Shown here: positions 4,159 to 33,385 of the stretch, in pieces
Position numbering within the stretch: the first letter of the stretch is position 1
Layout: every line of letters begins with the position of its first letter
Source: Macrostomum lignano
Taxonomy: Eukaryota
Assembly: GCA_002269645.1 (NCBI GenBank)
Contig: NIVC01000926.1
Location: 124,001-188,000, forward strand
Reading direction: 5' to 3'
Length of the DNA: 64,000 bases
Notes under the pieces: model-generated
Told to the model about the DNA's origin: nothing
Seen by the model: the letters and a program-made list of their open reading frames with translations, nothing else
Databases searched by the model: none
Translations under genes and position numbers: made by a program

Positions 4159-4499
4159 AGTAGTATGTAAAAAGACGAGCACAGACCCAGAACCCCCTTT
4201 TTAAAATATGCGTTTTTAAGGTCTAGAGGGGGGACACGGGGGGAAATTTAAAGAACACATCTAAACACCCTCCAGCACCCTCCAACACATAAAAACACAC
4301 CTAACACATAAAAACACATCTAACACTATTAACACTTCGAATCAAGTCCCCCGTGTCCCCCCTCTAGACCTTAAAAACGCATATTTAAATAAGGTCTGAT
4401 CTGTGCTCGTCTTTCCACACACTACTACACACACAAACTCTCTAGAACCCGTCGCACGCGCCGCAGGCGCGAAGGGTCTTTTTCTGTTACTAAAAATGA
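4159..4499 (+). repeat. Left TIR (341 bp) containing a 268-nt palindrome
   Basis: Reverse complement of 33045-33385 with scattered substitutions; arms 4159-4243 and 4348-4426 pair around an A/C-rich loop. Confidence 0.93.
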
Positions 4500-4781
4500 G
4501 CCGAGTTTACATGAATTTCACATGATACATGCTAACGAATATAAAAATTCATGTGCTGTTTTACACACAATGCACCGAGGACAGAGAATAAAAGCGTCTA
4601 TTGTGCTACAGCGGGGCAGGCCATTTTTGGATAGAGAATCTTTTGTGTTTGCGCCATCTATATTTTCTATACAAAAAAAGAGTAAAAAAGAGCTATAAAA
4701 TAAAACCGCTCGAGATGCTTGTACACTACCCTTTCTTTAGTGTCTGCAACTTAATTTTTCTGTTACTAAAAATAGACAAAA

Positions 4782-5177
4782 ATGACACACGTTACACATA
4801 TGCAAAATATGAATGAATTGCAGGTAGGAGACCCAGTTGAATACCGAGGTGAGGGTCTTTTTGATGTGGTTGGAACAGCAGCAAACTTCGTTAAAGATAA
4901 TATGGGTCTTATAGGCCAAGCAGGCTCTGCAGCAGGTTCTATAACAAACGCTGTAAAGGGTGGAATTGAAGCAGCGAGGGCAGTAGAAGAACTAAAGAAA
5001 TTGAGAGAATTTAACGACACCCTCTCACAAATAAAAGCAATAAAAGATTTGAAACTAGCGCAGGAAGCAACTCAAGCCGCACAACCAACAGAAACCCCCA
5101 CGAAAACCACACCAATAAGCAATAAAGATATTCAGGATTTTAATAAAATGTTAACCACAATTAAAGGTGGAAAATGA
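4782..5177 (+). CDS. Maverick 131-aa Gly/Ala-rich protein of unknown function (possible virion protein)
   Basis: Intact ORF, first gene after the left TIR, ends in IKGGK. Confidence 0.65.
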   Translation: MTHVTHMQNMNELQVGDPVEYRGEGLFDVVGTAANFVKDNMGLIGQAGSAAGSITNAVKGGIEAARAVEELKKLREFNDTLSQIKAIKDLKLAQEATQAAQPTETPTKTTPISNKDIQDFNKMLTTIKGGK

Positions 5178-5202
5178 TTAAAAAAATTTTAACAATATAA
5201 AA

Positions 5203-6177
5203 ATGGACACGGATAACGACCGTTTATATTTTATAGGAGAAATTGTAGATACTTTAAATCTAGATGATAATAAACATAGCCACACAATGTTAAAAAGATT
5301 GGATCGTTTAGGTAAAAAACTTGACTACGATATCGATACATTTAAACTTGCTGCAAAATATGCACAAGAAGGAAGGCCAATATCCTTTAAGAATCGCGGT
5401 AGAAATTATAGGCTGACAGACTCCGATGTAAAATTTTTATTGGAGACTCACACTAAAAAAGACGGCGGATTGTTACCTATTTTACCAATTCTTTTAGGCC
5501 TCGGAGCAGCCGGAGCAGCCGGTTTAGCAGGCAAAAGAATTCATGATAACCGAAAACAGTTAGCAGAATTAAAAGCAAAACAGGGGGGTATACTTCCACT
5601 TGCAACTTTGTTACCAATAATTTTTGCAGGAATAGGAGCAGCTGGAGGAGTTGCTGGTGGAGCAGCTGGAATTGCAAAAGCAGTAAATGACAAAAAAGCT
5701 GCGGATGAAAAAGCCAAAAGAGAGGCCGAATTTCAAAGACAGCAAATAACGCAGGATGCTCAATTCAAACAGAAACTCATTGACACTATTAATTGTAGTT
5801 CAGCAACAGCAGAGCAAAAAAGAAATGCAGAAGCTAGGTTAGCAGCCGGAAAAGGTTTACTGTTAAATGGCAGCGGTTTGGTACTAAAAGGAACAACCCA
5901 AGGAAGTGGAGTTGTAGCAGATAAACTACAGGAATTTGGTCAAACTTTAGAAAAAACGGGTGAGAAAGCTAAAGGATTTTTTGACAATATTGGAGCTAAT
6001 TTTAGGCCAGCAGTTCAGAAGATTTTTAATAAGTTAGGAAAAGATTTTAACATAATTGAAAAACACGATGGAAGCGGATTATATCTCGAAATGAGACCAA
6101 AAGCAGGTTCAGGAATTTTCTTAAATTCAAATGTTATGGGCAACGGACTACTGTTACCAAAAGCAGATCTCGAATAA
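5203..6177 (+). CDS. Adenovirus pX-like core/membrane-active precursor protein
   Basis: Two GG(L/I)LP-hydrophobic-GAAG segments (KDGGLLPILPILLGLGAAG; KQGGILPLATLLPIIFAGIGAAGGVAGGAAGIAKAVN) resembling adenovirus pX GGILPLLIP; repeated G(K/S/N)G(L/I)(L/Y/F/V)L motifs. Confidence 0.7.
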   Translation: MDTDNDRLYFIGEIVDTLNLDDNKHSHTMLKRLDRLGKKLDYDIDTFKLAAKYAQEGRPISFKNRGRNYRLTDSDVKFLLETHTKKDGGLLPILPILLGLGAAGAAGLAGKRIHDNRKQLAELKAKQGGILPLATLLPIIFAGIGAAGGVAGGAAGIAKAVNDKKAADEKAKREAEFQRQQITQDAQFKQKLIDTINCSSATAEQKRNAEARLAAGKGLLLNGSGLVLKGTTQGSGVVADKLQEFGQTLEKTGEKAKGFFDNIGANFRPAVQKIFNKLGKDFNIIEKHDGSGLYLEMRPKAGSGIFLNSNVMGNGLLLPKADLE

Positions 6178-6203
6178 AGACTATATAAATTTTATTCTAT
6201 AAA

Positions 6204-9200
6204 ATGGAAGCTATTTTAGCCAAAATCGATAATCCTGAAATTAGAGCACAATTAATAGCTCAATTGGAATTAGAAAGAGCTAATATAGAAGCAGAAATTA
6301 GAGCAAAATATGAAAAACGTTTAGAAAGACAATTAAATGATATTGACAACCCCCAACCACAAAGACAAAATGGAGCTGAAGTAATAGATATAGATATAGA
6401 TATAAATACAAATTATAAAGAATATTTTAAACAAATGAAAGATAAATTAAAGACCATATTAAACAATTATACTATAAGGCCAAATAACAAACGACAGCCA
6501 ATTAAGTATAAAATAGAAGTTGAAACAGAATTTAAAAAACCAAATATACTTAATGCAAATTCAGAAATTGAAGTAATAAATAACTTTTCACAAGAATCAT
6601 ATAAAACATTACTATCAATGAGAAATTACGACAATCAATTTAATCAAATAGAAGCTGAGTTTGATGAATGGATAGATAAGATGACAGAAAACGGATCTGG
6701 GTTTATATTTGTATCTTTTAATTCAGCAACAGTAAAGATTGTTCCTATTGAAATTCTTAAAGGGCGATCACATATGAATCCAGGATTTAAATCACACATG
6801 ATCATAAATCCAGACAATAGTGATAATAAATGTTTATTATGGTGTTTATTAATTCATAAATATCACAATCAAGTAGAATCACACACTAATAGAATATATA
6901 ATTATAGACAATATGAGAATGAAATAATAATGGAAAACATATCATACCCAGTAGCCATAGATGATATATATAAGATTGAAAAAATGAATGGGTTAAATAT
7001 TAATGTGTTTACAATTGAACAGCCAGAAGAAGAAAATCCAACCGATAAAGATTGGTATAAGAAAAACTGTTATTTAGTAAAGCCAGCAACTGATATAACA
7101 GCACCCAATCAAATCGACCTTTTGTACATACAGAATGAAAATGAAACACATTATATCTACATAAAGGACATTAGTTCATTTTTAGAAGTAAATAAAAATA
7201 GAATGCTATTATGTAGAAACTGTTTCACATTTAAAAAGAATGAAACAGCTCTTAAAAATCATCAACGATTTTGCTTAGATCATAAATTTACTAATGTTGT
7301 AATGCCAGATTATGAAGATGCAACCCTAAAGTTCCAACAACATTATATGGCAATTAAAAAACCAATAGTAATATATGCTGATTTTGAAGCAACAAATGTT
7401 CCCTTAAAAGAATCACAGACAGTATCTGATGGCGAATGCACAAAAAAATTAGCACAACAGTTTCCTAATAGTTATTGTATATATGTACACTCAGTAGCCA
7501 ATCATATATTTAAATCAAGGCTGATTACTTACCACGGCAAGGACGCAGCAAAACACATGGCAGAATCATTAGTAAATGCATTTGAAGTTATACAAAATCA
7601 ATATGATAAATTATCAAAAAATATTATTATGACAGATAAGGATAGAGACAATTATAAAAATGCAACAAATTGTTTTATGTGCAAAAGGTATTTAAGTAAG
7701 AATAATAAAATACGAGAACATTGTCATCTAACGGGAAAATATCGTGGGGCAGCATGTAGATCATGTAACGCAAAAGAAGGAAAAGGCTGTAAGGAAATAC
7801 CAGTATTTTTTCATAATGGTTCCGGATATGATTTTCATTTCTTAGTTCGAGAATTGCTACATTTAGGAAAGGATGAATATGAAGTAAATATATTACCTAA
7901 AACATCAGAAAATTACATATCAATAACATATGGTAAGAAATACTCCCATCTAGTTTTTCTAGACTCCTTGAGATTCTTATCAACCTCCCTAGCGAATGTT
8001 GTTTCATCATTAGTTCCAAAACCATGGGATTTAGAAATAGTAAAGAAAAACTTTCCAATACTATTGAATCGTTTCAAAAAAGAAAAACTATCCGAGGAAG
8101 AACTAATGCTATTAACTCGTAAGGGCATCTATCCATATGAATATGTAACATCTGAAAACGTATTTAGTGATACTCAACTACCCCCAATTGATAAGTTTTA
8201 TTCAACATTATCACAATCAAATATAAGTGAATCGGATTATGAACACGCTCAAAAAGTATGGAAATACTTTAATTGTAAAACATTTAAAGATTATCATAAT
8301 CTATATCTTAAAGCAGATATTCTCCTATTAGCTGATGCATTTGAAAACTTTAGGAATCATACATATGAGAACTTCAAAATTGATCCCGCATATTGTTTTA
8401 GTGCACCAGGTGATTGAGAAAGGAATTCGCGGCGGATTCTCGGGGGTACTAGGAGATAGATATACTAAAGTAAATAATAAATATCTACCAAATTATAATA
8501 AAAAAGAAAAATCATCATATGTATTATATCTAGATGCAAACAATTTATACGGTGGTTGTATGAAACAAAAATTACCAATAGCTGATTTCCAATGGGAAGA
8601 CGATCCCGATTATTACAAAAACATTCCCGAAGGAAGGGGTTGTATTGTAGAAGTGGATTTGCTATATACTCGGGAAGCAAAAGCAAAAACATATAAATAT
8701 CCTTTAGCTCCAGAGCATTGTTCAGTTAATGAAGATGATTTATCACAAACACAAAAAGATTATCTTAAAGCTGATAATACAAAACATCTAGCAACAAAAA
8801 AGTTAATACTAAATTTACATGATAAGAAAAACTATGTAGTGCATTATAAGCTTCTACAATTTTATGAAAAACAGGGATTAAAAGTGTCTAAAGTACATCG
8901 AACAATATCGTTTATTGAGGAAGATTGGTTAGCTAAATATATTGACTTTAATTCAAATCAGAGACAGATGTCAAAATCAAATTTTGAGAAAGATTATTGG
9001 AAATTAATGAATAATGCTTTTTATGGAAAAACGGTTGAAAATATTAGAGATAGAACCCAATTCCATTTAGAAAAGGATATTGATAAAGCAAAGAAATATT
9101 TCTCAAAACCTAACTTTAAAGACTTTATAAAATTTTGATGAGGACGCACTTTTTCCCAAATCCCGCGCTAGCACATGGGCTCTAAACTTACTTGCCTACT

Positions 9201-12039
9201 AACAGTGGGCAGTGGGCATTTTTATCCTTTTTCTGCGAATTTTCATAGAATCTATACTAGATATAATGTCTGGCCATACTAGTAGTCATAATAACATAGG
9301 CGCAGCTTTTTGGGTCGTAAATCATCGCTTTCGAAGCTGATCTGACAGCCACCTGCGCCTCACTCAGTGTTGAAGCGGGCGCCAGATGGTCTGAGAGGAT
9401 GCGGGCGGTAGCTTTTTTTTCTCATCATTTTGACAGGCCATCAAGATTTATGAGGTCAGAGCCTATTGTTCGGATTCACTCAAGCGTGTGACAGCTTTGA
9501 CAGCTATGCGTTGTACCCCTAAAAGTACCTTGGGATCAGCGATTAGCGATTTCTCTTCATTATCTTCACTTTCTATTTAATAAGAGCTTTCTAATGTATA
9601 TTTTTTCATTAATTTCTGTCAATCCTACGCGAAAAGTCATAAATCATTTTGTTGCGATTTTGAGTGATTTATGGCCGCACCTGTCATCTTTTTACGACCC
9701 TGTGGGAACTGATAGGATCTCTCGGTCACGTGATTCTGGGTAGCAACGAGCTTAGCCAATCAGAAAATTCGGCGCTCATTTTAACAAAACGGCTCAGCCA
9801 ATCAGAATCGACGTGTTCCGTTATAACAAACTGCGGTCCAGTTGGCGGCTATTTAAACCGGAGTTTTTGGCCCGCTCGGACGCAACTTCTTCTTACTTTG
9901 GCTCGGGCCCAGCGCGCAGCTTCTGGTTCCCGGAGCACGACCGTCGTTTCTTGATCCCCGGATTGCAACTTCCCCCATCATCATCAAGGACGAGTCCCCC
10001 GGTCGACAGCAGCGAACATCCAGTTAAGAGCATCACCTGCTAGCTAACAGCGAAGATTGTGACAGCATCATCCCGAGTCTACAGCTGCAGAGCATCGAGC
10101 CGATTCGGTCACTGTGGAATACCTGGTCTCCGGCTGTTGAGTTTCTGATTGGTTGGGTGAGAGGCTACCTAGACTTGCTTGATTGGGTGATCCCTTTTCT
10201 GTCCCCTGTTGCAGTAGCTGAATTAGGCGCACAATTTTGCTCATTTTGTTCAGTAGTGCTGTTGCTGAGGCAGGAATCATTCAATAATACTGCCAGTAGT
10301 CTAAGACTCCAATTCAATCTAAAGTGTGAAGTGAATTAAGGAGAAGATTAAATCTAACAGTTATCTTTGTCGGCTTTATTTCTTTGTTCGCCGATGGCTC
10401 AGATGAGTAGCTAAGCTAGTAGGCGCCGGTCACAGTGGACCAATGGCAAGGCAGTTCTCAGTCGACCAATCTAACAAATCAGTGAGCAAAACTGCCAAAA
10501 GTGCAGAATCGGCGCCAGAGATGTACTTTGTGCACTCTAGGGTAGCCAAGCGGCTCGGGTAAATGAATCATGCGGTCTCTGAAGTTCGAGTTAGCCTATC
10601 ATCAGCGCTATGAGAGGCTAGTTGGCGCGTTGAAGGCTAGAAGTACATATCTTCGTATTTAGCAATGTAATAGTACATGTAGCTACCCATAGACTCGCCA
10701 CCGCAAGAATCCCCTGCACAAGTCCCCTCTGTACCTGCATGGCCAACGCGATCTAGTCCCAGCAGTGTCCCTTATCATCGGCTATGACTTCGAGATTGAC
10801 AGCAAAAAGACACTAGTTGGCAGGTAAGTGCAAAGCCCCTTCTAGTCGGAAGCCCGATTTCGAGAGTCCCGGTGTGGTGAGCCAGGGCGCACGGGCTGGT
10901 GGCAGCAAGTTAGTTGATCTGCGGATTAGCTAATTTCTACTTTCAAAATTCTCCCTGCTCGTCTCTCGCTGTCCCTCTCTTAGCTATAGGACCTAGACTG
11001 CTCGCCACACGATCAAGCTACCATGGGGCTGACCATCTGACAGGAGTGGGGGGCCAGGTCTCTAATTGATTTATTTCTGAGCCTGAGGCCCGAAGGCTTC
11101 CCTAACAAGGAGCCCGAAGGTCGAATCCCATCAATTTGATGATAACTTTATGGGTATTCATATGAGAAATAAAACAACAAAATTTCTTAAACCAATATTT
11201 ATTGGAATGGTTGTTTTAGATTTTGCAAAGTTAGTAATGTATGAATACTATTATGATGTTATAAATAAAACGTGGCCAGATAACTATCCAATATATGCAG
11301 ATACTGACAGTTTGGTATTTAAGGTTGAAACACCAGATGTTTATAAAGATATGGAAAAAATTAAGGATACATTGGATACATCCGACTATCCGGATAACCA
11401 TCCCTTAAAATCAGATCAAAATAAAAAAGTTGTACTTAAAATGAAAGATGAATTAAATAGCAAAATCATAACTGAGTTTATAGCAATAAGATCAAAATGC
11501 TATGCATTTAAAGTTTTAGGACAGGAGGGAGAGGTAAAAAAATAAAAGGGGTATCGAGGGCAGCAGTTAAAAAGATAACATTTGATGATTATAAAAACGT
11601 ACTTTTAGATTATCTTAATACAATTGAAAATTATCATGCTCCACAATATCGATTAAATTCAGATAAGCATCAGATGTTTGTCATTGAGACAGATAAAAAA
11701 ACATTAAGTCCATTTGATGATAAAAGATATTTAGATGATAAAATTAAAACATTTCCATTTGGTTTAAAAGAAGAGATAAAAAATATGATAAAAGATAAAA
11801 AACAAAAAGAAGATATAATAAGCAAATATAGAGAATACAAAGAGGCAATAAATAATTATTATTACGATTGTGATTGCGAATCCGAATGTGAATGTGAATA
11901 TAATAAATATCTAGAATATGAAAAAGATATAGATAATTATTATGCAACATTTCCAAAAGAACTTAAAAAATTAAACAAGGAAAAAGTCTTGGATAACTGG
12001 AAGAGATTAACAGAAAAATTAATACCGGCAAAAAACTAA
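6204..12039 (+). pseudogene. polB: Protein-primed family B DNA polymerase with an embedded EndoVII-like zinc domain; disrupted
   Basis: YADFE, FHNGSGYDFH, KADILLLAD (exonuclease I-III); CFMC...EHCHLTGKYRGAACRSCN; YLDANNLYG, KLMNNAFYGK, YADTDS. Lesions: deletion with frameshift at about 8410 (SAPG joined to IEKGIRGG), solo LTR at 9136-11133, frameshift in an A-run at about 11543. Confidence 0.97.
9136..11133. mobile_element. Solo LTR (1998 bp), probably Ty3/Gypsy-type
   Basis: Termini TGATG...CATCA; 4-bp TSD ATTT at 9132-9135 and 11134-11137; removal restores polB ...DFIKFDDNFMGIHMR...; no coding capacity; CCAAT and TATA-like motifs near 9755-9860. Confidence 0.85.
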
Positions 12040-12294
12040 AGCATGTAATTGTTTAAGCATAATGTCCATTTCAATTTCGTATTTTATAGAACACCAATTG
12101 TCCTCACAATCAGCAGGATAACTTAAACATTCCTTTATTTTTTTCCTAAGTACTTTTATTTTTCTAACAAGACGATCAATTTCAATTTCAATTACTGTTT
12201 CAGCATAAGCAATTGCTTTTTGTATAAAACGTTTTCTTTTATCCAAGTAGTATCGAATAGGAAACACGTCGTCCCCGTAATCACTATAAAACAT
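12019..12294 (-). CDS. Maverick small hypothetical protein
   Basis: 91-aa ORF overlapping the polB end; no recognised motif. Confidence 0.4.
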   Translation of the reverse strand: MFYSDYGDDVFPIRYYLDKRKRFIQKAIAYAETVIEIEIDRLVRKIKVLRKKIKECLSYPADCEDNWCSIKYEIEMDIMLKQLHALVFCRY

Positions 12295-12383
12295 ATTATT
12301 TATTTTTTATTAATATCATTAAGTTCACGCTCTTTAGTGATAAGGATCATTTGTATCTCCATTTTCTTATAAAAAATTTAAAC

Positions 12384-21322: not shown

Positions 21323-23655
21323 GCCCCTGGCATTAGTTAGTCAAGTGGTCTAGTGGGGGCTGGCCGCCCCCACGCCCCTGGCATTAGTTAGTCTAGTGGT
21401 ATAGTGGGGGCTGGCCGCCCCCACGCCCCTGGCATTAGTTAGTCTAGTGGTATAGTGGGGGGCTCGCCGCCCCCCACGCCCCTGGCATTAGTTAGTCTAG
21501 TGGTATAGTGGGGGCTGGCCGCCCCCCACGCCCCTGGCATTAGTTAGTCTAGTGGTATAGTGGGGGGCTGGCCGCCCCCCACGCCCCTGGCATTTGTTAG
21601 TCTAGTGGTATAGTGGGGGGCTCGCCGCCCCCACGCCCCTGGCATTAGTTAGTCTAGTGGTATAGTGGGGGCTGGCCGCCCCCCACGCCCCTGGCATTAG
21701 TTAGTCTAGTGGTATAGTGGGGGCTGGCCGCCCCCACGCTCCTGGCATTAGTTAGTCTAGTGGTATAGTGGGGGGCTGGCCGCCCCCCACGCCCCTGGCA
21801 TTAGTTAGTCTAGTGGTATAGTGGGGGCTGGCCGCCCCCCACGCCCCTGGCATTAGTTAGTCTAGTGGTATAGTGGGGGGCTGGCCGCCCCCCACGCCCC
21901 TGGCATTAGTTAGTCTAGTGGTATAGTGGGGGCTAGCCGCCCCCCACGCCCCTGGCATTAGTTCTTCTAGTGGTACGCTCGTATAGTGGGGGGGGGCTTG
22001 CCGCCCCCCACGCCCCTGGCATTAGTTAGTCTAGTGGTATAGTGGGGGGCTGGCCGCCCCCCACGCCCCTGGCATTAGTTAGTCTAGTGGTGTAGTGGGG
22101 GGCTGGCCGCCCCCCACGCCCCTGGCATTAGTTAGTCTAGTGGTATAGTGGGGGGCTGGCCGCCCCCCACGCCCCTGGCATTAGTTAGTCTAGTGGTATA
22201 GTGGGGGCTGGCCGCCCCCACGCCCCTGGCATTAGTTAGTCTAGTGGTATAGTGGGGGGCTGGCCGCCCCCACGCCCCTGGCATTAGTTAGTCTAGTGGT
22301 ATAGTGGGGGCTGGCCGCCCCCCACGCCCCTGGCATTAGTTAGTCTAGTGGTATAGTGGGGGCTGGCCGCCCCCACGCCCCTGGCATTAGTTAGTCTAGT
22401 GGTATAGTGGGGGGCTGGCCGCCCCCACGCTCCTGGCATTAGTTAGTCTAGTGGTATAGTGGGGGCTGGCCGCCCCCACGCCCCTGGCATTAGTTAGTCT
22501 AGTGGTATAGTGGGGGCTGGCCGCCCCCACGCCCCTGGCATTAGTTAGTCTAGTGGTATAGTGGGGGCTGGCCGCCCCCACGCCCCTGGCATTAGTTAGT
22601 CTAGTGGTATAGTGGGGGCTAGCCGCCCCCCACGCCCCTGGCATTAGTTCTTCTAGTGGTACGCTCGTATAGTGGGGGGGGCTTGCCGCCCCCCGCCCCT
22701 GGCATTAGTTAGTCTAGTGGTATAGTGGGGGCTGGCCGCCCCCACGCCCCTGGCATTAGTTAGTCTAGTGGTGTAGTGGGGGCTGGCCGCCCCCCACGCC
22801 CCTGGCATTAGTTAGTCTAGTGGTATAGTGGGGGCTGGCCGCCCCCACGCCCCTGGCATTAGTTAGTCTAGTGGTATAGTGGGGGCTGGCCGCCCCCACG
22901 CCCCTGGCATTAGTTAGTCTAGTGGTACGCTCGTATAGTGGGGGGCTTGCCGCCCCCCACGCCCCTGGCATTAGTTAGTCTAGTGGTATAGTGGGGGGCT
23001 GGCCGCCCCCACGCCCCTGGCATTAGTTAGTCTAGTGGTATAGTGGGGGCTGGCCGCCCCCCACCCCTGGCATTAGTTAGTCTAGTGGTATAGTGGGGGC
23101 TAGCCGCCCCCCACGCCCTGGCATTAGTTCTTCTAGTGGTACGCTCGTATAGTGGGGGGGGGCTTGCCGCCCCCCACGCCCCTGGCATTAGTTAGTCTAG
23201 TGGTATAGTGGGGGCTGGCCGCCCCCACGCCCCTGGCATTAGTTAGTCTAGTGGTATAGTGGGGGGCTGGCCGCCCCCACGCCCCTGGCATTAGTTAGTC
23301 TAGTGGTATAGTGGGGGCTGGCCGCCCCCACGCCCCTGGCATTAGTTAGTCTAGTGGTATAGTGGGGGGCTGGCCGCCCCCCACGCCCCTGGCATTAGTT
23401 AGTCTTGTGGTATAGTAGGGGGCTAGCCGCCCCCCACGCCCCTGGCATTAGTTTTTCTAGTGGTATAGTGGGGGGCTGGCCGCCCCCCACGCCCCTGGCA
23501 TTAGTTAGTCTAGTGGTATAGTGGTATAGTGGGGGGCTAGCCGCCCCCCACGCCCCTGGCATTAGTTAGTCTAGTGGTATAGTGGGGGGCTGGCCGCCCC
23601 CACGCCCCTGGCATTAGTTTTTCTAGTGGTATAGTGGGGGCTGGCCGCCCCCACA
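21323..23655. repeat. 51-bp minisatellite array, about 45 units
   Basis: Unit GCCCCTGGCATTAGTTAGTCTAGTGGTATAGTGGGGGCTGGCCGCCCCCAC; no unique spacers. Confidence 0.97.
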
Positions 23656-24052
23656 CCCCGCTCCCCCACCCCTCCCGCGCGTTGTTGTTGGGGAGGGTGG
23701 TTGTTGTTGTGGGGTTTGCGTAACGTGGGGGCTGCCGCCCCACACCCCCGCTCCCGCACCCCACCCCTCCGCAACTCTTCTCACCTCTAACACATCTTTT
23801 TAGCATGCTAAAACTGCTTGTAAGCCTTTGGCGACCGCGCAACACATGATACTTGCCGATATGTATCGTAATATTTTTTCTGCACTAACAAATCATCTGT
23901 GCCGCACTTTCAGCTTCACTCTTACTCTTTAATAAGGTATAGAAGGAAATGAAAATTAAACAATCAATATTAAATTATATTCAAGTGAAAGAGAATTGAA
24001 AATACTAATAAATCCGTTCCTGCTAAAAAAATTAAATTTAAAAAAAAAACTT

Positions 24053-24125
24053 TGCCCACTTGGGATTCGAACCCGTGTTTAGGCCATTTACAAAGCAACT
24101 GCCTTCGGCCCCGATCCATCTCTTG
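24053..24125 (-). pseudogene. tRNA-derived (Pol III promoter-like) sequence
   Basis: Minus strand has B-box GGTTCGAATCC followed by a T-run; no clean cloverleaf. Confidence 0.55.
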
Positions 24126-25980
24126 CTTAAGCGAAGCTCTACAGTGCACGCCCTTTATATCGAATATTCCCTATGGTAGCCACTTTTACGATTTTTGCTG
24201 CTTTTTCATACATTTCTGCTCGCTGCATCGCAGCGCCTTCATCTAAAAATGCGAGTTGCATGTCGTTACAGAGATAACATCAAGGCGCATTCATCTAATG
24301 CATTTTTAAAGTATGTCAACAAATTTTACGCCTCCTAGGCGCCAAATTGTGCATTTTCACCTGTTCTGACAGGTATTCAAACAGGTATTAAGACCTATTA
24401 ACTTAAGAATCAGTTTTCAAAACTAATTTAGTTGCACAGTGCATCCATAGTGCTGTTTTTAGACACCAAAATTGAGTCTCTAGGCCTTGCCAATGCAGAG
24501 TTATTAGCAAAAGTATGCTCAAAATTTGCCCAAAAATAGCCTTCTAAAAATTCGGAGCCAATTTTCTCAAAAATACGAATTTTCCAGCCATATTGGCGTA
24601 TGACCGGTGTAACTTTAGCTATTCGACTAAACAATATTGAAAATGCAGAAAAATCGGTGCGCAAAAATTCTTATTTTTCGACTTCAAAGTTTGTACCCCC
24701 GAATGGGCCGTTTTTCACTTAACAGGTAAAAAGTACCTGTTAACAGAGGTTTTTTCAGGAGTGTTTTATGTCATTCAAAAGGGCATCCGATAGGCTACAA
24801 TTTGACGCCATACTCGAAAAACTTTGCCCCATTTTAAAAAAATTTCCTTAACAACGTCTGATTTTCTGCAGTGCCCCCGGCCTCTTTTTTCCCTGGTTTC
24901 CGGGTCACTGCTCAGCACAGGTAGGTCCAAATGCTTAGAAAATTTAGGAAAACAAATTTCCATATGTTTGACACGTCGTGTTAAAGTCTCAACACTGTAG
25001 CATAAAACACTTTTTCAAGTTTGAGGACTACTTTTTTAAAACGTGACCCAATTTTTCGAAAATGTCGTTTTTAGGCACTCTTTGGCACCTGGGCAGGTTA
25101 TTGATGGCCCAATCGGCCAAATCTCGATGTTTCCGATTAAAAGACATCCATTTGAGTTATTTGGTATACAAAACAGCAAAAATAAAGTTTTCCATCTCGA
25201 CGCCATAGGCCTCACAAAAGTGCACTAAAAATTTGTACTTTTAAACAGCAGATAGGCAACCATGTGAAAAGTACATTTTAGCCCTAAAAACTATAGCGCA
25301 TCAAACAGCCCCAGGTGTTATTGACGCTATGAGGCAGCTCAAAGGCCGCGCTATCGCGCGTCCTTTTCGCTGCGGTGAGGCAAAGTTGAAAAAAATGCCG
25401 ATTTTTCGACCTCAGAAAACACGTTTTTTGCACTTTTACCCTAAAAGTTAAAGTACAATCAAAAAATCCATTTCTGATCATTGTAGCGTTTGAATGCCCG
25501 CGTTTACTGAGCCCACTCGCTAAGCGCTGCCATATTCTCAATCCTTATTTTTTGAGATCAAAGTTTTTGACAAAGTCGAAAAAACGCAGTTTTTGGTTGC
25601 CATGGCAACCAAAACGCGTTGCCATAGCAACCAACTATTGTGCATCCGATAGCGCTAGGTCTTTGACACATTTTGGCAAAAACTGTTTGTAAATCGGTTG
25701 TACCGTTTTTTATTGGCAGCGTTTAAAAGTTGAAAAACGTCATTTTTAGTGTGTGCAACCACGTTACATCTTATCAGGGACGATTTCGCAAAAGTAAGCA
25801 GCATAGAAAAAAATTCTCGCTTCGCTCGCCTTTTTTTCTATACTACTTACTGGCTCATCGTCCCACAACTAGTGAATGAAGACGCTGTCGTCTTCAAAGG
25901 TGGGACGATGGTTTATATTGTGTCCATTATTGTTTATGGCTATGACATCTATTTATTTAACCTAAATTGAGATCTAAAAA

Positions 25981-27570
25981 GCCCCCCACGCCCCTGGCAT
26001 TAGTTAGTCTAGTGGTATAGTGGGGACTGGCCGCCCTGGCATTAGTTAGTCTAAGTGGTATAGTGGGGGGCTGGCCGCCCCCACGCCCCTGGCATTAGTT
26101 AGTCTAGTGGTATAGTGGTATAGTGGGGGCTGGCCGCCCCCACGCCCCTGGCATTAGTTAGTCTAGTGGTATAGTAGGGGGCTGGCCGCCCCCCACGCCC
26201 CTGGCATTTATTAGTCTAGTGGTATAGTGGGGGCTGGCCGCCCCCCACGCCCCTGGCATTTATTAGTCTAGTGGTATAGTGGGGGCTGGCCGCCCCCACG
26301 CCCCTGGCATTAGTTAGTCTAGTGGTATAGTGGAGGGCTGGCCGCCCCCACGCCCCTGGCATTAGTTAGTCTAGTGGTATAGTGGGAGGCTGGCCGCCCC
26401 CACGCCCCTGGCATTAGTTAGTCTTGTGGTATAGTGGGGGCTGGCCGCCCCCCACGCCCCTGGCATTAGTTAGTCTAGTGGTATAGTGGGGGCTGGCCGC
26501 CCCCACGCCCCTGGCATTAGTTAGTCTAAGTGGTATAGTGGGGGCTGGCCGCCCCCACGCCCCTGGCATTAGTTAGTCTAGTGGTATAGTGGTATAGTGG
26601 GGGCTGGCCGCCCCCACGCCCCTGGCATTAGTTAGTCTAGTGGTATAGTAGGGGGCTGGCCGCCCCCCACGCCCCTGGCATTAGTTAGTCTAGTGGTATA
26701 GTGGGGGCTGGCCGCCCCCACGCCCCTGGCATTTATTAGTCTAGTGGTATAGTGGGGGCTGGCCGCCCCCACGCCCCTGGCATTAGTTAGTCTAGTGGTA
26801 TAGTGGGGGCTGGCCGCCCCCCACGCCCCTGGCATTAGTTAGTCTAGTGGTATAGTGGGGGCTGGCCGCCCCCACGCCCCTGGCATTAGTTAGTCTAAGT
26901 GGTATAGTGGGGGCTGGCCGCCCCCCACGCCCCTGGCATTAGTTAGTCTAGTAGTATAGTGGGGGGCTGGCCACCCCCCACGCCCCTGGCATTAGTTAGT
27001 CTAGTGGTATAGTGGGGGCTGGCCGCCCCCACGCCCCTGGCATTTATTAGTCTAGTGGTATAGTAGGGGCTGGCCGCCCCCACGCCCCTGGCATTTATTA
27101 GTCTAGTGGTATAGTGGGGGCTAGCCGCCCCCCACGCCCCTGGCATTAGTTAGTCTAGTGGTATAGTGGGGGCTCGCCGCCCCCCACGCCCCTGGCATTA
27201 GTTAGTCTAGTGGTATAGTGGGGGCTGGCCGCCCCCCACGCCCCTGGCATTAGTTAGTCTAGTGGTATAGTGGTATAGTGGGGGGCTAGCCGCCCCCCAC
27301 GCCCCTGGCATTAGTTAGTCTAGTGGTATAGTAGGGGGCTGGCCGCCCCCCACGCCCCTGGCATTAGTTAGTCTAGTGGTATAGTGGGGGGCTGGCCGCC
27401 CCCCACGCCCCTGGCATTAGTTAGTCTAGTGGTATAGTGGGGGGCTGGCCGCCCCCCACGCCCCTGGCATTAGTTAGTCTAGTGGTATAGTGGTATAGTG
27501 GGGGCTAGCCGCCCCCCACGCCCCTGGCATTAGTTAGTCTAGTGGTAAAGGGGGGCTGGCTCCCCCACCG
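25981..27570. repeat. 51-bp minisatellite array, about 31 units
   Basis: Same unit as 21323-23655. Confidence 0.97.
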
Positions 27571-27875
27571 CTCCACCACCCCTCGAGAACTTTTCCCACA
27601 TCTAAACACGTCTTTGTAATATGTTACAACTATATTCTAGCCTTCAAACGACCAGACATCAAATACTTGCTTGCCGACATGTATCGTAATATACTTTTTG
27701 CACTAACAATCATACGTGCCGCACTAAAAGATTCACTGTTACTCTTTAAATACGTATAAAAAGAAAAATAAATTTAAATAAATGTAATTTAATTGTATAA
27801 AAAACATAATAGTTAGAGAAATAAAAATACTAAAAAACTGTTTGCTCTAAAAGAACTTTAAACTAAAAATTTTTC

Positions 27876-27942
27876 GGATCTCTTGGGAATCGAACCCTGC
27901 AGCACTCAATTATATGGAAACTAACTCTGCCACTGAGCCACA
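27876..27942 (-). pseudogene. tRNA-derived (Pol III promoter-like) sequence
   Basis: Minus strand has A-box TGGCTCAGTGG and B-box GGTTCGATTCC, followed by TTTTT. Confidence 0.6.
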
Positions 27943-30670
27943 AATTGCTTACTAAGTTGGCCTATTGTACACGTATTTTATATCGAATATCGCTAATAGC
28001 AGCCATTTCTACCATTTTTTCTGCTTTTTCATACATTTCTGCTCGTTGCATCGCAACGCTTCTACCTAAAAATACGAGTCGCATGTCGTTACAGAGATAA
28101 CATCAAGGCGCATTCATCCAATGCATTTTCAAACTATGTCAACAAATTTTTCGGCTGCTAGGCGCCAAAATATTAATTTTCACCTGTTCTGGCAGGTAAT
28201 CAAACAGGTATTAAGACCTGTTAACCTAAGAATCAGTTTTCAAAACTGATTAAGCTGCATAATGCATCCATAGTGCTGTTTTTAGACACCAAACTTGAGT
28301 CTCTAGGTCTCGCCAATGCAGAGTTATTAGCAAAAGTATGCTCAAAATTTGCCCAAAAATGGCCTACTCAAAATTCGGAGCCAATTTTCTCAAAAATACG
28401 AATTTTCCAGCCATATTGGCGTATGACCGGTGTAACTTCAGCTATTCGACTAAACAATATTGAAAATGCAGAAAAATCGGTGCGCAAAATTTCTTATTTT
28501 TCGACTTCAAAGTTTGTACCCCAAAAGGGCCGTTTTTCAATTAACAGGTAAAAAGTACCTGTTAACAGGGGTTTTTTCAGGAGTGTCTTATGTCATTCAA
28601 AAGGGCATCCGATGGGCTACAATTTGACACCACATTCGAAAAAATTCGCCCAGTAATAAAAATTTTTCTTTAACAACATATGGTTTTTTGGTCGAGTCCC
28701 CCGGCCTCTTTTTTCCCCGGTTTCCGGGTCACTGCTCCGCACAGGTAGGTTCAAATGCTTAGAAAATTTAGGAAAACAAATTTCCATATGTTTGACACGT
28801 TTTGTTAAAATTTCAACACCGTAGCTTAAAACACTTTCTTATTTTTGGAGACTACTTTTTGAAAACGTGACCCAAATTTTCAAAAACACTCTTTTTGACC
28901 CTTGTAGCCATATAGAGCAGCAATGAATGGCCCAATCAAGCAGATCTCAGCATTTCCGAATAAAAGACATCCATTTGAGTGATTTGGGTTGAAAAATTGA
29001 AAAAATCAAGATTTGCATCTGTATAGGATAAGCCTCTTTAAAGTGCACAAACGGTTTGTACTTTTAAAGTGCAGATAGGCAGCCATGTCAAAAGTACATT
29101 TTAGCCCAAAAAATTATAGCGCATCTAAAAGCCCCAGGTGTTGTTTACATTATGCAGCAGCTCAAAAGCCGCGCTATTGCGCGTCCTTTTCGCTGCAGTA
29201 CGGGCAAGGTTGAAAAACATGTACAAAAAATTGGCCGAAAAATTGCATTTTTAAAAATCAGATGCAGTTTGCTCAAAAATACGAATTTTCCAGCCATATT
29301 GGCGTATGACCGGTGAAACTTTAGCTATTCGACTAAACAATATTGAAAATGCAGAAAAATCGGTGCGCAAAATTTCTTATTTTTCGACTTCAAAGTTTGT
29401 ACCCCCAAATGGGCCGTTTTTCACTTAACAGGTAAAAAGTACCTGTTAACAGGGTTTTTTTCAGGAGTGTCTTATGTCATTCAAAAGGGCATCCGATGGG
29501 CTACAATTTGACACTACACTCGAAAAAATTCGCCTCATTTTAAAAAAATTTCCTTAACAACGTTTGATTTTCTGCAGAGCCCCCGGCCTCTTTTTTCCCT
29601 GGTTTCCGGGTCACTGCTCAGCACAGGTAGGTCCCAATGCTTAGAAAATTCAGGAAAACAAATTTCCAAATGTTTGACACGTCGTGTTAAAGTCTCAACA
29701 CCGTAGCATAAAACGCTTCCTTATTTTTGGGGACTACTTTTTGAAAACGTGACCCAATTTTTCGAAAATGTCGTTTTTAGGCACTCTTTAGCACCTAGGC
29801 AGGTTATTGATGGCCCAATCGGCCAAATCTCAATGTTTCCGAATAGAAGACATCCATTTGAGTAATTTGGTGTAGAAATATTAAAAAATAAAGTTTTCCA
29901 TCTCGACGCCATAGGCCTCACAAAAGTGCACTAAAATTTGTACTTTTAAACAGCAGATAGGCAGCCATGTGAAAAGTACATTTTAGCCCTAAAAACTATA
30001 GCGCATCAAACAGCCCCAGGTGTTATTGACGCTATGAGGCAGCTCAAAGGCCGTGCTATCGCGCGTCCTTTTCGCTGCGGTGAGGCAAAGTTGAAAAAAA
30101 TGCCGATTTTTCGACCTCAAAAAACACGTTTTTTGCACTTTTACCCTAAAAGTTAAAGTACAATCAAAAAATCCATTTCTGATCATTGTAGCGTTTGAAT
30201 GCCCGCGTTTACTGAGCCCACTCGCTAAGCGCTGCCATATTCTCAATCCTTATTTTTTGAGATCAAAGTTTTTGACAAAGTCGAAAAAACGCAGTTTTTG
30301 GTTGCCATGGCAACCAAAACGCGTTGCCATAGCAACCAACTATTGTGCATCCGATAGCGCTAGGTCTTTGACACATTTTGGCAAAAACTGTTTGTAAATC
30401 GGTTGTACCGTTTTTTATTGGCAGCGTTTAAAAGTTGAAAAACGTCATTTTTAGTGTGTCACATCTGTTGCACATCTTATCAGGGACGATTTCGCAAAAG
30501 TAAGCAGTATAGAAAAAAATTCTCGCTTCGCTCGCATTTTTTTCTATACTACTTACTGGCTCATCGTCCCACAACTAGCGTAGATAATCGCTATAAAAAA
30601 GTTAAGCAACCAACTATCGAAGAATTTGCAAAACAATTAGTGTTAACTTGTATTTTTAAGGCTATTAAAA

Positions 30671-32276
30671 ATGAGCAATCAATTAGTGTTTGAAGGAGGA
30701 TTATTAGATGTTCAAAAAGGATTAACAAGCTTACCACCAATCTTTACTACTGGAAGGTATACAGGTGAGTTACACATCCCAGGGTATTCGTACGCAGGTT
30801 AACCCGCGGCCTAAGTGGTAGAAGCAAAGCTACTGCTAGTCACTATTTGTGGCGACATCTTCAAATTGCGTGAAACCCGTCATACAGCTTCAAGTACCAC
30901 TTCAATTGAGAAATCTTTTGAAGGAACAGAGGTAACTCCTCTTCCCAATCGGACTTCGTCCGCGAACCTATGGTTCGAAGGTAACAAGCTTGAAGACACG
31001 GTGGCAATGCGCAGCCAAGCTCCTAAGTCGGCAGATATGGAGAAGGTTCAGAGAGCAGACGGAGGTGGGCGGTAATTTATCCGCTTAAGGTGTGCTCCAG
31101 CCTATTTCGAAAGATTTAGGGTAAACTACCGGGCACTCGGCTGGATTTGAGATTAAATCCTGACAATACTCCAAAAGCCGATTCAATTCCCATTAACGGT
31201 ATTGATTGGTTAGCATATTATCATGACTTAGCATACAGAGATGCTGATAAGAACTCACCCGAGGAAGCATTAAGATTAAAACATGAAGCCGATAGAAAAA
31301 TGATTCAAGGATTGGATAATTTGCAGGGGCTGTCAGTAAGCCAAAGATTAACTAGGTGGATGGTTAAAAAAATCTTGCAATCTAAAGTTAAATTTGGTTT
31401 GGGAATTAATTACAATCAACATGGAAATAATTGTGTTGAGTGTTTGCTATTAAGTGGTGGTGGGTTAAGTTCTGATGAGGCAAAGATTCTTCATAAAGAA
31501 TATCGAAAACCTAAATTTTATAGAAAAATCATGAACTTCAAAAAGAATGAAATTTGGTATGCTGATTTAATGTTAATGCCAATCGATAAAGGATATAAAT
31601 ATATCTTAACCATATTAGATGGTTTTACTCGATATGCGTGGGCTGTTCCTTTAAAATCCAAAAAGGAGAGGAGGTTGCTGGTGCTTTTAGAAGTCTTGGA
31701 GAAAAAAGTGAAAGGTTGTGTGTTGATGAAGGAAAAGAATTTTACAATCCTCATATGTATAAATTATATCATTTTGAAAAAGGACAAGAAAGGATAAAAG
31801 ACGCGAATGGGGAGTATATTAATAAAATTTATTCTATTTATGGAGAAAGTAAAAACGCATTAATAGAAAAATTTAATCGAACTTTAGGTAAGAAATTGTG
31901 GTTTCAGTTTAGTCTTAATGGAAATCAAAAGTGGGTAAAAATATTACCAGACGTCGTGAAAGATTATAATAGTTCATATCATTCGGCTATAAAGATGACT
32001 CCTCAACAAGCTTATAACAGTCCTGAAAAAGTTAAAGTTACTTTTGGAGAATTTGAAAAAAAGAAAACTAAAGGTTTTAAGGTTGGTGATTCTGTTTATA
32101 TCTATAAATGGAAAGATAAGTTTGAAAAGGGAAGAAAAGGATATTGGAAAATAAGTGAGAAATTTACTATCAGTAAAGTTTTAAATACAAATCCTACAAC
32201 CTATATAATTGCTGATAAGGATGGTGAAGAAATATTGGGTTCGTTTTATGAGAACCAGATAATATCTGCGAACTAA
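30671..32276 (+). pseudogene. Parvovirus-like phospholipase A2 (PLA2X) fused to a retroviral-type integrase; contains a group I intron and a frameshift at about 31660
   Basis: Exon 1 (30671-30799, 43 codons) ends GYSYAG. Exon 2 (from 31129) starts PGTRL...INGIDWLAYYHDLAY...HEAD and reads through into the integrase: WYAD, ILDGFTRYAWAVPL, VDEGKEF, IEKFNRTL, YNSSYHSAIKMTP. Confidence 0.9.
30800..31128 (+). ncRNA. Group I self-splicing intron, IC1-like (329 nt, no internal ORF)
   Basis: P AAATTGCGTG, Q AATGCGCAGC, R GTTCAGAGAGCA, S AAGGTGTGCTCC. Helices: P3 CATCTTC/GGAGGTG; P4 TGCGTG/TGCGCA; P6 GCC/GGT; P6a CTCC/GGAG; P7 G-(A)-GAGCA/TGCTCC; P8 GGCGG/CCGCT; P9 with a GAAA loop. The 5' exon ends in U, and removal restores YAG-PGT in frame. 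Confidence 0.92.
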
Positions 32277-32286
32277 ATTCGAACAG

Positions 32287-32496
32287 TTACTTAAGACAAC
32301 AGGGTAGTAAATTTTTTATAACAAACAAAAACAATATTATTACTATTATTGTTACTAATATAATTATTGACATTTGTTCAACAGTGATTAGACTTAAATT
32401 TTCATTAAGTTCATTAACCGGGACGTAATTTACCTTCATTTTTTTATATATATTTTTAATAATAAATGTCGTTTCTGTTATAGAATAATAGTTCAT
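32287..32496 (-). CDS. Small single-pass membrane protein
   Basis: 69 aa, hydrophobic stretch IIILVTIIVIILFLFVI, TAAAAAATG start. Confidence 0.6.
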   Translation of the reverse strand: MNYYSITETTFIIKNIYKKMKVNYVPVNELNENLSLITVEQMSIIILVTIIVIILFLFVIKNLLPCCLK

Positions 32497-32499
32497 TTT

Positions 32500-32730
32500 T
32501 TAAATATTTTTTTCACAATTTAAACATTGTGCTAAAAGAAGAATTTGCTCCCCCTTATCCCAAATATAATCTAATTCATCAATTTCAAGCGGATATATCT
32601 TTATATCTGGAAATATATATACTTCATCTAGTATTTCATCCTTTATTAATTTTTTTATTGAATCAAGTGCATTAAATATTGTTTGAGTTGATTCAACTAT
32701 TGAAAATTGGGGTCTGTTAAATAATTCCAT
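32500..32730 (-). CDS. Small acidic protein, paralog of 32734-33048
   Basis: Shares DEVY...YPLE(I/L)DE....GE.I..L with its neighbour. Confidence 0.65.
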   Translation of the reverse strand: MELFNRPQFSIVESTQTIFNALDSIKKLIKDEILDEVYIFPDIKIYPLEIDELDYIWDKGEQILLLAQCLNCEKNI

Positions 32731-32733
32731 TTT

Positions 32734-33048
32734 TTACATAAAAATTTCAATTTCATTCTCAGAATCACTAGTTTCATATGAGCTATTTGTTGATTCGGAA
32801 TCGTCTGAATGAACCTCCCAATCATCTGAATTTAAATAATCTCCAAGTTGAAATATTAACTCGCCCTCTTGTTCTAAATCATACATCTCATCCAACTCTA
32901 ATGGATAAAGTTTTAGGTCATACTTGTCGTCATATTTTAAATAAACTTCATCAATTATTCCGTTCAAAATATGCTGTTTTATTATCTCTGCATTTTTAGC
33001 AACAGTCTCAAAAGTATCACTAACAGAAAAGGTGTAAACTCTGTTCAT
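32734..33048 (-). CDS. Small acidic protein whose start codon lies inside the right TIR
   Basis: 104 aa; the ATG at 33046-33048 is the innermost part of the TIR. Confidence 0.65.
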   Translation of the reverse strand: MNRVYTFSVSDTFETVAKNAEIIKQHILNGIIDEVYLKYDDKYDLKLYPLELDEMYDLEQEGELIFQLGDYLNSDDWEVHSDDSESTNSSYETSDSENEIEIFM

Positions 33049-33385
33049 TTTTAGTAACAGAAAAAGACCCTTTGCGCCTGCGGCGCGGCCTGGGGTTATA
33101 GAGTGTTTGTGTATGTAGTAGTATGTAAAAAGACGAGTACAGATCAGCCCTTTTTTAAAAAGACCGTTTTAAGGTTCTAGAGGGGGGACACGAGGGGGAT
33201 AATTCGAAGTGTTGGGGGTGGTTTTTATTGATTTTTGGTATTAGGGGGTGTTGTAGGGTGTTTTTGTGTTGGAGGGTGTTTAGATGTGTTTTTTTATTTC
33301 CCCCTCGTGTCCCCCCTCTAGACCCTTAAAACGGTCTTTTTAAAAAGGGGCTTCTGGGTTTGTACTCGTCTTTTTACATACTACT
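33045..33385 (-). repeat. Right TIR (341 bp) containing a palindrome
   Basis: Arms 33117-33198 and 33300-33385 pair around a G/T-rich loop. Confidence 0.93.

Follow-up and report, generated by a model that had tools for sequence, protein, structure and literature searches.

A predicted group I ribozyme in the PLA2-integrase gene of flatworm Mavericks, and its probable partnership with a restriction-type nuclease

How can a 329-nt insert persist between two conserved codons of a viral protein gene, and what keeps it at that site? The question is raised by a 64,000-nt stretch of Macrostomum lignano DNA (the window; assembly GCA_002269645.1, contig NIVC01000926.1, positions 124,001 to 188,000 of the forward strand), where a Maverick element carries a gene that fuses a phospholipase A2 (PLA2) domain to an integrase, and where this gene is interrupted at window positions 30800..31128 (+ strand). 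By its sequence the insert is a group I ribozyme, as the initial annotation of the window had proposed. It ends in an A and holds no open reading frame (ORF), and it is referred to here as type A. Taken with the nuclease genes described below, it suggests that a ribozyme-and-nuclease parasite is active in an animal nucleus. The intron system is selected and mobile, and the reading that we favour, and consider probable, is that the ribozyme and an Eco47II-like nuclease home together between Mavericks at a GGNCC site that these elements cannot avoid.

The interrupted gene starts with exon 1 (30671..30799, + strand), whose 43 codons end with the first Gly of the YxGPG loop, and it continues in exon 2 (31129..32276, + strand), which encodes the remainder of a parvovirus-type PLA2 domain fused to an rve integrase and is frameshifted at about 31660-31700 in the window copy. 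The intron thus lies at GGT|CCN, between a Gly and a Pro codon: the sequence ...YAG ends with the GGT at 30799, and PGT... begins with the CCG at 31129. Two intron-less alleles, L038 (YNFAG-PGT) and L047 (YSYAG-PGT), are continuous through this site, so that both splice sites are fixed to the base and the annotated boundaries of the 329-nt insert, between YAG and PGT, are confirmed. Exact removal of the intron restores the gene in the form found in natural alleles (L038, L047 and L072), and in L047 it is a single PLA2-integrase frame of 423 codons. The PLA2 domain matched PF08398 with 33.4 bits (cut-off 23.9) in fusion with the integrase, and a pX-like domain gave a weak match only, in a separate ORF. 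The gene is hence not the PLA2X gene that the initial annotation had named, which in adintoviruses consists of a PLA2 domain and a C-terminal pX-like domain (PMC8502044; statements on this and the other papers cited refer to the parts of each that were covered). The fusion and its G-P-G-T motif are common to relatives in other data, and the motif is invariant in 7/7 aligned homologues. The first codon of the window intron, read in the exon-1 frame, is a stop; among 31 distinct type A copies it is TAA in 22, and TAA or one of its TAC/TAT variants in 25. Unspliced type A RNA would therefore stop at the first intron codon, and splicing would be needed for both PLA2 and integrase, unless the integrase has a start of its own.

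The Rfam group I model RF00028, the check that had been proposed for the insert, matched positions 30786-31119 with 53.6 bits (gathering cut-off 50; E 1.2e-12 on 901 nt), and this was the only gathering-level match in the window. Free folding was modestly above chance (z -2.1; 2/100 shuffles were equally good). The helices P1, P2, P2.1, P3, P4, P5, P5a/b/c, P6, P6a, P7, P8, P9.0 and P9 could all be drawn on the + strand. In P1 (30796..30812) the exon sequence AGGU pairs with GCCU and leaves a U30799.G30809 wobble at the 5′ splice site; the U.G was present in 31/31 distinct copies. The guide at 30803-30806 can also pair with exon 2, as a candidate P10 (-6.8 kcal/mol in the window copy). P2 and P2.1 follow at 30814..30853, P2 with four adjacent compensatory changes between copies, and the core is formed by P3 (30856-30862/31061-31067), P4 (30867-30872/31008-31013), P6-P6a (31014-31047), P7 (31051..31098; G.A-bulge.GAGCA/UGCUCC) and P8 (31068-31085). 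The P5abc domain (30888..30995) has a GAAA loop and an A-rich bulge, and P6-P6a includes a CCUAAG...UAUGG sequence that we take to be a tetraloop-receptor motif. The last segment (31099..31128) holds P9.0 (AG/CU), P9 with a GAAA loop and the terminal A31128, and it is P9.0 as well as the intron-less alleles that place the 3′ splice site at this base. Two other placements were rejected: the Rfam 3′ end, G31119, lies inside P9 and would add three loop residues, and with a one-base shift of both splice sites the U.G and P9.0 are both lost.

The drawn structure was kept between copies. Pairing among the 31 distinct type A copies was found in 97.7% of cells (40-48% in a slid-structure control), and 11/100 pairs had changed on both sides (0-1 in the control), counts that are not independent events since the copies are related by descent; L036 and L041, whose 5′ ends could not be parsed, were left out of the alignment. 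A comparison of types A and B, the latter being the intron of a second Maverick family, showed two-sided changes in 10/60 pairs, three of which belong to P7, and covariation was found in P3, P4 and P7. The window P7, GAGCA/UGCUC, differs from the GACUU/AAGUC of type B by three compensatorily swapped pairs, and the guanosine-binding G:C pair (G31053:C31097 in the window) was kept in 31/31 distinct copies, as the initial annotation had claimed for this helix. The proposed class stood in part. P5abc with its A-rich bulge, P2.1 and the P6a/b receptor, which are presumably the marks of IC1, are all present; the distance from P9 to the splice site is only 8 nt, without room for P9.1, P9.2 or P13, and the absence of P9.1/P9.2 makes IC1 membership partial, so that the intron was filed as IC1-like. 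Some peripheral parts vary: a 30-nt double hairpin in P5abc (about 30948-30977) is optional (13/31 distinct copies), and further optional hairpin modules vary in P5, P5c and P6b among L054, L061, L064, L065 and L067.

The intron-plus and intron-minus survey that had been called for found both states. In a DNA search 40/40 scored copies (of 185 candidates) were full-length, and junction patterns detected 131 3′ ends of types A and B together (a control gave 0), 23 type C junctions and 22 intron-less junctions (3 in family A, to which the window element belongs, and 19 in family B) plus one chance match. One chance match was removed from each junction count, intron-bearing and intron-less, and 10 duplicate loci were removed; the copy counts probably still include haplotype duplicates. 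A hand count of the 100 junctions listed of the 131 gave 81 of type A, 18 of type B and one chance match. Type B occupies the same GGT|CCN site in family B, whose protein is about 62% identical, has a canonical P7 and scored 72-91 bits with RF00028 in 28/28 copies scored (of 29,353 candidates; 10 of the 28 were fetched). A batch Rfam scan of 8 intron-bearing loci gave no match, probably because larger input is filtered more strictly. Thirteen scored copies of the small-subunit rRNA gene were uninterrupted.

Type C scored 43 bits with RF00028, below the cut-off (E 2e-9). Over 135 nt (window 30814-30948), which span P2, P2.1 and P5abc, it is 83% identical to type A, but its core is another one, by its motifs presumably IE-like; this suggests that IC1-like and IE-like ribozymes have exchanged modules at a shared site. 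The type C ends (L048, L052 and L073-L078) all read ...AAAGG CCGGGT TG|ACT. Splicing after TG would be in frame without the Pro-Gly, splicing after AAAG would give Gly-Ala-Gly-Leu, and splicing after AAAGG would give a stop; the guide-exon pairing energies of -10.8, -9.8 and -7.2 favour no option. It is a speculation that the ribozyme, once released, acts a second time and removes a 2-nt UG, its guide being able to fit both GGU sites.

Relatives outside this genome were then considered. Among 80 metagenome loci with PLA2-integrase relatives, found by a search that favours intact genes, 67 read through without an intron, 12 did not cover the site and one, L107 (44% identical), has part of a related intron at the same site, its 3′ half adjoining the Pro codon. 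The L107 intron ends in G and has a GAGUA/UACUC P7, and no GGNCC occurs in the 1.7 kb of this locus. Of 17 nuclease homologues in other public data, 10 continue into this same intron core. PLA2 protein and alignment searches of IMG/VR gave no relatives; a 17-base intron motif gave 17 stretches there, none an intron by Rfam or by the intron profile. A two-part intron motif gave 0 matches in viral and 0 in metagenome contigs, a phage search gave no match, and no donor (rDNA, giant virus or other Polinton-like virus) emerged from these searches.

The intron would be excised by the two-step guanosine pathway, which would restore the PLA2 and integrase frame. The annotated boundaries were right; what had gone unnoticed is that the A at 31128 departs from the group I rule of a terminal G. 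Among the junctions listed, type A ends in A in 60/81 and in G in 21/81, whereas type B ends in G in 18/18, so that most type A copies would have to perform the second step with a terminal A. Judged from sequence, two-step splicing is very likely for the terminal-G copies and, on balance, likely for the terminal-A copies. The P7 swap also occurs with a terminal G (9/31 distinct copies, and L107), and it is therefore not a compensation for the terminal A. Of the runs that contain the sequence none was labelled as RNA, and 14 are RNA at a guess. When contigs of four sequencing runs were aligned to a type A copy, the intron was covered much as the exons were and no contig joined exon 1 to exon 2; these runs are possibly DNA and rare forms are lost in contigs, so that the result weighs on neither side. 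Some of the contigs leave the type A copy after P2 (L009:1676) and continue in sequences unlike types A to C, a hint that other samples contain additional P2.1 inserts or intron types.

The exons of the terminal-A copies are, by their substitution patterns, under purifying selection. The ratio of nonsynonymous to synonymous change (dN/dS) was 0.14 for exon-1 codons -37 to -13, 0.35 for the last 12 exon-1 codons, 0.05 for the PLA2 part of exon 2 and 0.10 for the integrase, with 3 exon-1 and 16 exon-2 sequences with broken frames left out; the terminal-G copies gave similar values, and dN/dS mirrors lineage history and recombination and is not assignable to the terminal-A state. The intron core differs by 0.03 per site between copies and synonymous sites by 0.17-0.34, a low intron divergence that would also come from recent homing. 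On the exon-2 tree the intron state changes 12 times (minimum 3) in a scattered manner; the bootstrap of this tree is unconverged, and ordinary recombination could produce the scatter. Terminal A is spread over the tree, with at least 5 changes forced by well-supported branches, and the terminal-A copies have the exon-1 frame in register in 31/34 cases and P9.0 intact in 22/22. The last 12 codons of exon 1 (about 30765-30799) are far more variable than the remaining gene (pS 0.49, pN 0.23), which could be what is expected beside a nuclease target or a conversion tract, the target perhaps being that of the HNH gene described below.

It is possible, though we think it unlikely, that the terminal-A introns splice badly or never, that they are passengers of co-conversion and that PLA2-integrase is borrowed from terminal-G or intron-less copies. 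Nearly all group I introns end in G (PMC6545197), as do type B (18/18 listed) and L107; helper copies exist, and the P7 swap offers no remedy. This account has to accommodate a terminal A that is the majority state (60/81 listed) and is spread over the tree, in copies that keep P7, P9.0 and open exon frames, and also a natural terminal-A intron, the hexacoral mitochondrial ND5-717, that yields exactly ligated exons in vivo (PMC6545197).

The nuclease gives the second half of the argument. The type B intron carries a 159-codon ORF of the Eco47II family in its P2.1 loop, which passed the PF09553 (Eco47II) cut-off of 25.9 in 2/2 intact copies with scores that lie near it (26.9 and 29.7). A free-standing Eco47II-like gene, 63% identical to the type B ORF, lies just upstream of PLA2 in 18/50 family-A loci (score 20.7, below the cut-off), and an HNH/endonuclease VII-like gene takes the upstream slot in 31/50. 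A nuclease gene is thus found directly upstream of PLA2-integrase in 49/50 loci. The genome holds 110 Eco47II matches, many of them broken. The predicted structure of the nuclease (predicted local distance difference test, 93) matched EcoO109I best, with Z 9.5, a root-mean-square deviation of 3.6 and 158 aligned residues, the next match having Z 6.1; AvaII was also among the structure matches. EcoO109I and AvaII cut sites with a GGNCC core. By E-value Foldseek ranked DdmD first (TMq 0.40); EcoO109I, with TMq 0.66-0.71, was preferred to it. Searching the PDB sequences with the nuclease profile gave no significant match. By profile and predicted fold, the nuclease is an Eco47II-family PD-(D/E)xK enzyme. 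Eco47II homologues have been assigned GGNCC, with stated uncertainty (PMC10305163), and we consider it quite probable that the predicted nuclease cleaves this word.

A Gly codon followed by a Pro codon always reads GGNCC, the very word that the intron splits; avoidance was therefore predicted before any counting was done. In the window element GGNCC occurred 0 times in 17.9 kb, two secondary insertions being left out, against 10.2 expected; this is the lowest ratio of the 256 XXNXX words, and GGNCC is the only word at zero. Between the terminal inverted repeats (TIRs), outside a 9.3-kb insertion, there are 8 GGNCC sites, all within the 2-kb insertion at 9142-11142. The zero compares with 4.9 under synonymous shuffles (5/1000 reach zero) and 15.8 under codon-order shuffles (0/1000). 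At the protein level Gly-Pro was found 0 times in 4,956 aa (9.0 expected; 1/1000) and Pro-Gly 7 times. GGNCC with non-RY flanks is also avoided, which favours the five-base word over RGGNCCY. The controls were flat, with 73 sites (76.6 expected) in the host flanks and 58 (51.4 expected) in 34 AT-rich metagenome relatives, and giant-virus loci with distant Eco47II genes were low (16 vs 47.4). Among 50 loci the word was absent from 45, and the other five are two intron-less alleles, L001 (which includes an insertion), L007 and L046. In each of the intron-less L038, L047 and L182 the single GGNCC within the element is the insertion site, and in a family-B pair the intron-less copy has one GGNCC in 6 kb, at the junction, and the intron-bearing copy none in 6 kb, about 3 being expected.

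The favoured mechanism can now be stated. The elements would have purged GGNCC from the whole genome, Gly-Pro included, except in the G-P-G loop of PLA2, where the conserved Gly-Pro forces GGN-CCN and makes the site unavoidable. Since the intron splits this GGNCC, intron-bearing genomes would be immune and intron-less ones cut once, at the insertion point, and repair of the cut copy from an intron-bearing one would amount to homing. For ORF-less introns such as that of the window the homing would be collaborative. The nuclease would have to act in a lytic or shielded phase, the host DNA having kept its sites. Homing and avoidance both need element genomes to meet as naked replicating DNA, and they thus give indirect evidence that animal Mavericks co-replicate and compete like viruses. 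Of the horizontal acquisition that had been envisaged, the ribozyme in a viral element stands; three intron types at one site, tied to a nuclease, speak against a single event.

Several points weigh against this reading, among them the limits given above with the copy counts, dN/dS, the exon-2 tree and the PF09553 scores. Splicing and cleavage are inferred, not observed. The terminal A of 60/81 listed type A copies should weaken step 2, and ND5-717, which also ends in A, splices poorly, with >70% unspliced (PMC6545197). In most family-A loci the gene in the upstream slot is the HNH type and not Eco47II. The main difficulty is the host DNA: a nuclease with a five-base site would cut there too, yet the host keeps GGNCC and shows no avoidance, so that either the nuclease is expressed only in a lytic or otherwise restricted phase or its true site has more than five bases. 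In family B, 19 intron-less alleles with an intact site persist. A by-eye comparison of the 20 intron-less junction contigs with the 110 Eco47II matches showed no overlap, an exclusion that is statistically weak with only 3 intron-less family-A copies and that in family B follows from the nuclease gene sitting inside the intron. Finally, a second word, CANTG, falls short in family A, with 28 occurrences where 56.5 are expected, and the shortage has no explanation. This depletion, which is not seen in family B or in host DNA and is split into 24 CATTG/CAATG and 4 CACTG/CAGTG, is possibly the footprint of another nuclease.

A rather unlikely alternative, compatible with most of the homing reading and different in what is selected, is that the nuclease is mainly a weapon against host chromatin or competitors in the lytic phase, that the intron is a self-protection in place of a methylase and that homing is a side effect. 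Self-protection would account for an avoidance that spans the whole element and both families, and for a nuclease gene that is also free-standing (18/50 loci). No methylase family was found among the scanned element ORFs, and none of the 12 PF00145 matches in the genome lies on the contig of the window, while a C5-methylase-like ORF adjoins the distant giant-virus Eco47II relatives in 9/10 loci (by a crude motif test); the ten giant-virus loci showed no group I intron. Chlorovirus restriction enzymes do degrade host DNA (PMC7019647). What this alternative does not lead one to expect is the type B gene inside an intron loop, like a homing gene, with 10/17 homologues elsewhere also intron-borne, nor the many copies with no nuclease or a broken one, which fit a homing cycle, nor the competition of three intron types for one site.

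We regard as improbable an ordinary homing with a long target, in which the absence of GGNCC and Gly-Pro would come from an old restriction system, a host or helper-virus enzyme, and the match of the site would be a coincidence. Introns generally prefer conserved motifs, the depletion of CANTG in family A is of the same kind and the upstream gene is HNH-type in most family-A loci; yet the missing word is precisely the site assigned to the nuclease's family, it is split by the insertion, and the controls without the nuclease are flat.

The setting of the intron bears on whether it is animal at all. The host Maverick (4159..33385, strand not assigned) has TIRs at 4159-4511 and 33033-33385 (81.5% over 357 nt, beginning AGTAGT) and is flanked by an exact 6-bp target-site duplication (TSD), GGTGTA, amid host repeats; the claim of a protein-coding gene in a Maverick integrated in an animal nuclear genome is borne out by these features and the host flanks. 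A contaminating protist virus or a misassembly is accordingly very improbable and close to refuted. The Polinton-like-virus introns described are all from protists (PMC12220804) and the element is AT-richer than the flanking host DNA; but host-type secondary insertions lie inside the element, more than 150 junctions were found, the listed runs that hold the sequence all carry one organism code, and intron copies share contigs with Wnt genes, one of them 23 kb from a copy on C952, in a 764-Mb genome with many Wnt genes. One Wnt exon is 100% identical to a Macrostomum lignano protein (the next best match has 40%), so that the host is a free-living flatworm. A miniature inverted-repeat or other transposon resembling a ribozyme by chance is refuted, the Rfam score only 3.6 bits above the cut-off and the modest folding z-score notwithstanding, by the absence of TIRs or a TSD at the insert, by in-frame exact intron-less alleles, by sister copies with 72-91 bits (28/28 scored) and by covariation in P3, P4 and P7.

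The surmise that such introns were undescribed in Polintons did not hold. An Rfam scan of 8,300 Polinton-like genomes (2025) reported 51 group I introns, all in three protists (Rhodomonas lacustris, Desmodesmus armatus and Paulinella micropora) in the rows covered, 1-2 and 39-51 of 51 (PMC12220804), and given this precedent no claim is made that they never occur in Polinton-like viruses. Those introns are likewise of about 310-380 nt, multi-copy and nuclear, in integrated small dsDNA viruses; their splice sites, host-gene function, nuclease and intron-less alleles are not worked out in the parts of that paper covered, and the flatworm case differs in its bilaterian host, its PLA2-integrase gene and a visible link between nuclease and target. 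A 2013 review confines nuclear group I introns to the rRNA genes of microorganisms (PMC3679873). The nuclear rDNA IC1 and IE introns of Tetrahymena, myxomycetes and fungi have the same P1-P9 core, P2.1 and P5abc, an optional homing gene in a peripheral loop, ORF-less derivatives, and IC1-like and IE-like forms side by side; the flatworm intron is unlike them in lying in an mRNA gene of an animal, in lacking P9.1/P9.2, in the mostly terminal A of type A and in the PD-(D/E)xK nuclease in P2.1 (PMC3679873).

Group I introns are also known in chloroviruses (PMC7019647) and Bodo saltans virus (PMC5871332), where they interrupt viral protein genes, occur as nuclease-bearing "parent" and ORF-less "offspring", and have a proposed role in virus competition; those viruses differ in having protist or algal hosts, in not being integrated and in HNH and GIY-YIG nucleases, and no genome-wide avoidance is described in the parts covered. 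Collaborative homing of ORF-less introns with free-standing nucleases is known from phages (Zeng, Bonocora and Shub 2009, via PMC11296320), and the ORF-less intron adjoining a free-standing nuclease gene (49/50 loci here) resembles it; the flatworm system differs in its animal host and in two alternative nuclease cassettes, one of a short-site restriction type. I-Ssp6803I and I-Bth0305I likewise place a restriction fold within a group I intron; the I-Ssp6803I site is long, 17 bp (PMC3424549), whereas here uniqueness seems to come from the purging of a 5-bp site. The Eco47II/Sau96I-type enzymes belong to the same Pfam family, Eco47II itself appearing there as a type II enzyme of bacteria that is accompanied by a methylase (PMC10305163), in contrast to the methylase-free element scan. 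ND5-717 is, like the flatworm intron, an animal group I intron with a terminal A in a protein gene, but it is mitochondrial, obligatory and vertically inherited, and the flatworm intron is nuclear-viral, optional and A/G polymorphic (PMC6545197). A full-text literature search found no group I introns in animal Mavericks and no Eco47II-type intron nucleases, and animal group I introns reported from mitochondria only; most subscription journals, repeat-database reports and preprint supplements were outside its scope. Specialists would not expect an animal host, nor a polymorphic terminal A, nor the link between nuclease and site. A selected multi-copy mRNA-gene family in a laboratory-tractable flatworm would make ribozyme function in an animal nucleus testable, and the terminal-G rule can be put to the test on natural copies that differ, A or G, in their last base while their cores are otherwise identical. 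If true, the purging of a restriction site throughout the element genome would have made a homing nuclease out of a restriction enzyme, which would be a new route to homing.

The remaining features concern the element itself. Its gene set comprises a protein-primed PolB (pPolB)-like polymerase, a double-jelly-roll capsid, an A32 ATPase, protease-like and pX-like genes and an integrase, several of them broken in the window copy. The Pfam matches PF00665 (rve integrase, E 1e-6), PF21738 (capsid, E 1e-4) and PF04665 (ATPase, E 1e-3) are all below the curated cut-offs; the scan gave no match to the protein-primed PolB and cysteine protease domains, genes that we presume present from motifs in the translations. 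The polymerase-like ORF at 6204-8417 includes an endonuclease VII domain (PF02945, above cut-off), in likeness to an HNH-bearing pPolB2 that has been mentioned (PMC10748475). The window copy is decayed and probably an inactive relic: it has frameshifts, its polymerase gene contains an insertion of 2 kb, and one of 9.3 kb interrupts the nuclease gene that precedes PLA2. That nuclease gene is of the free-standing HNH/endonuclease VII-like kind (20785..21242, + strand), its 3′ end (about 30574-30690) being split off by the insertion at 21243-30573. The latter has TG...CA ends, a 5-bp ACTAG duplication and two related 4.7-kb units with 52-53-nt tandem arrays, and looks like the long terminal repeats of a non-coding retroelement. 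The insertion at 9142-11142 is GC-richer and has an 8-bp direct repeat. An ORF at 14282-16327 is fibre-like, with 19-residue repeats and an F5/8 type C domain. Hairpins similar to the optional ones of the intron also occur as in-frame insertions close to the beginning of exon 1, in L031, L052, L074 and L078. Between PLA2 and integrase, at about 31441-31465, there is an LSGGG stretch (LSGSG in many copies, absent in distant relatives), which we take to resemble an adenovirus-protease cleavage site.

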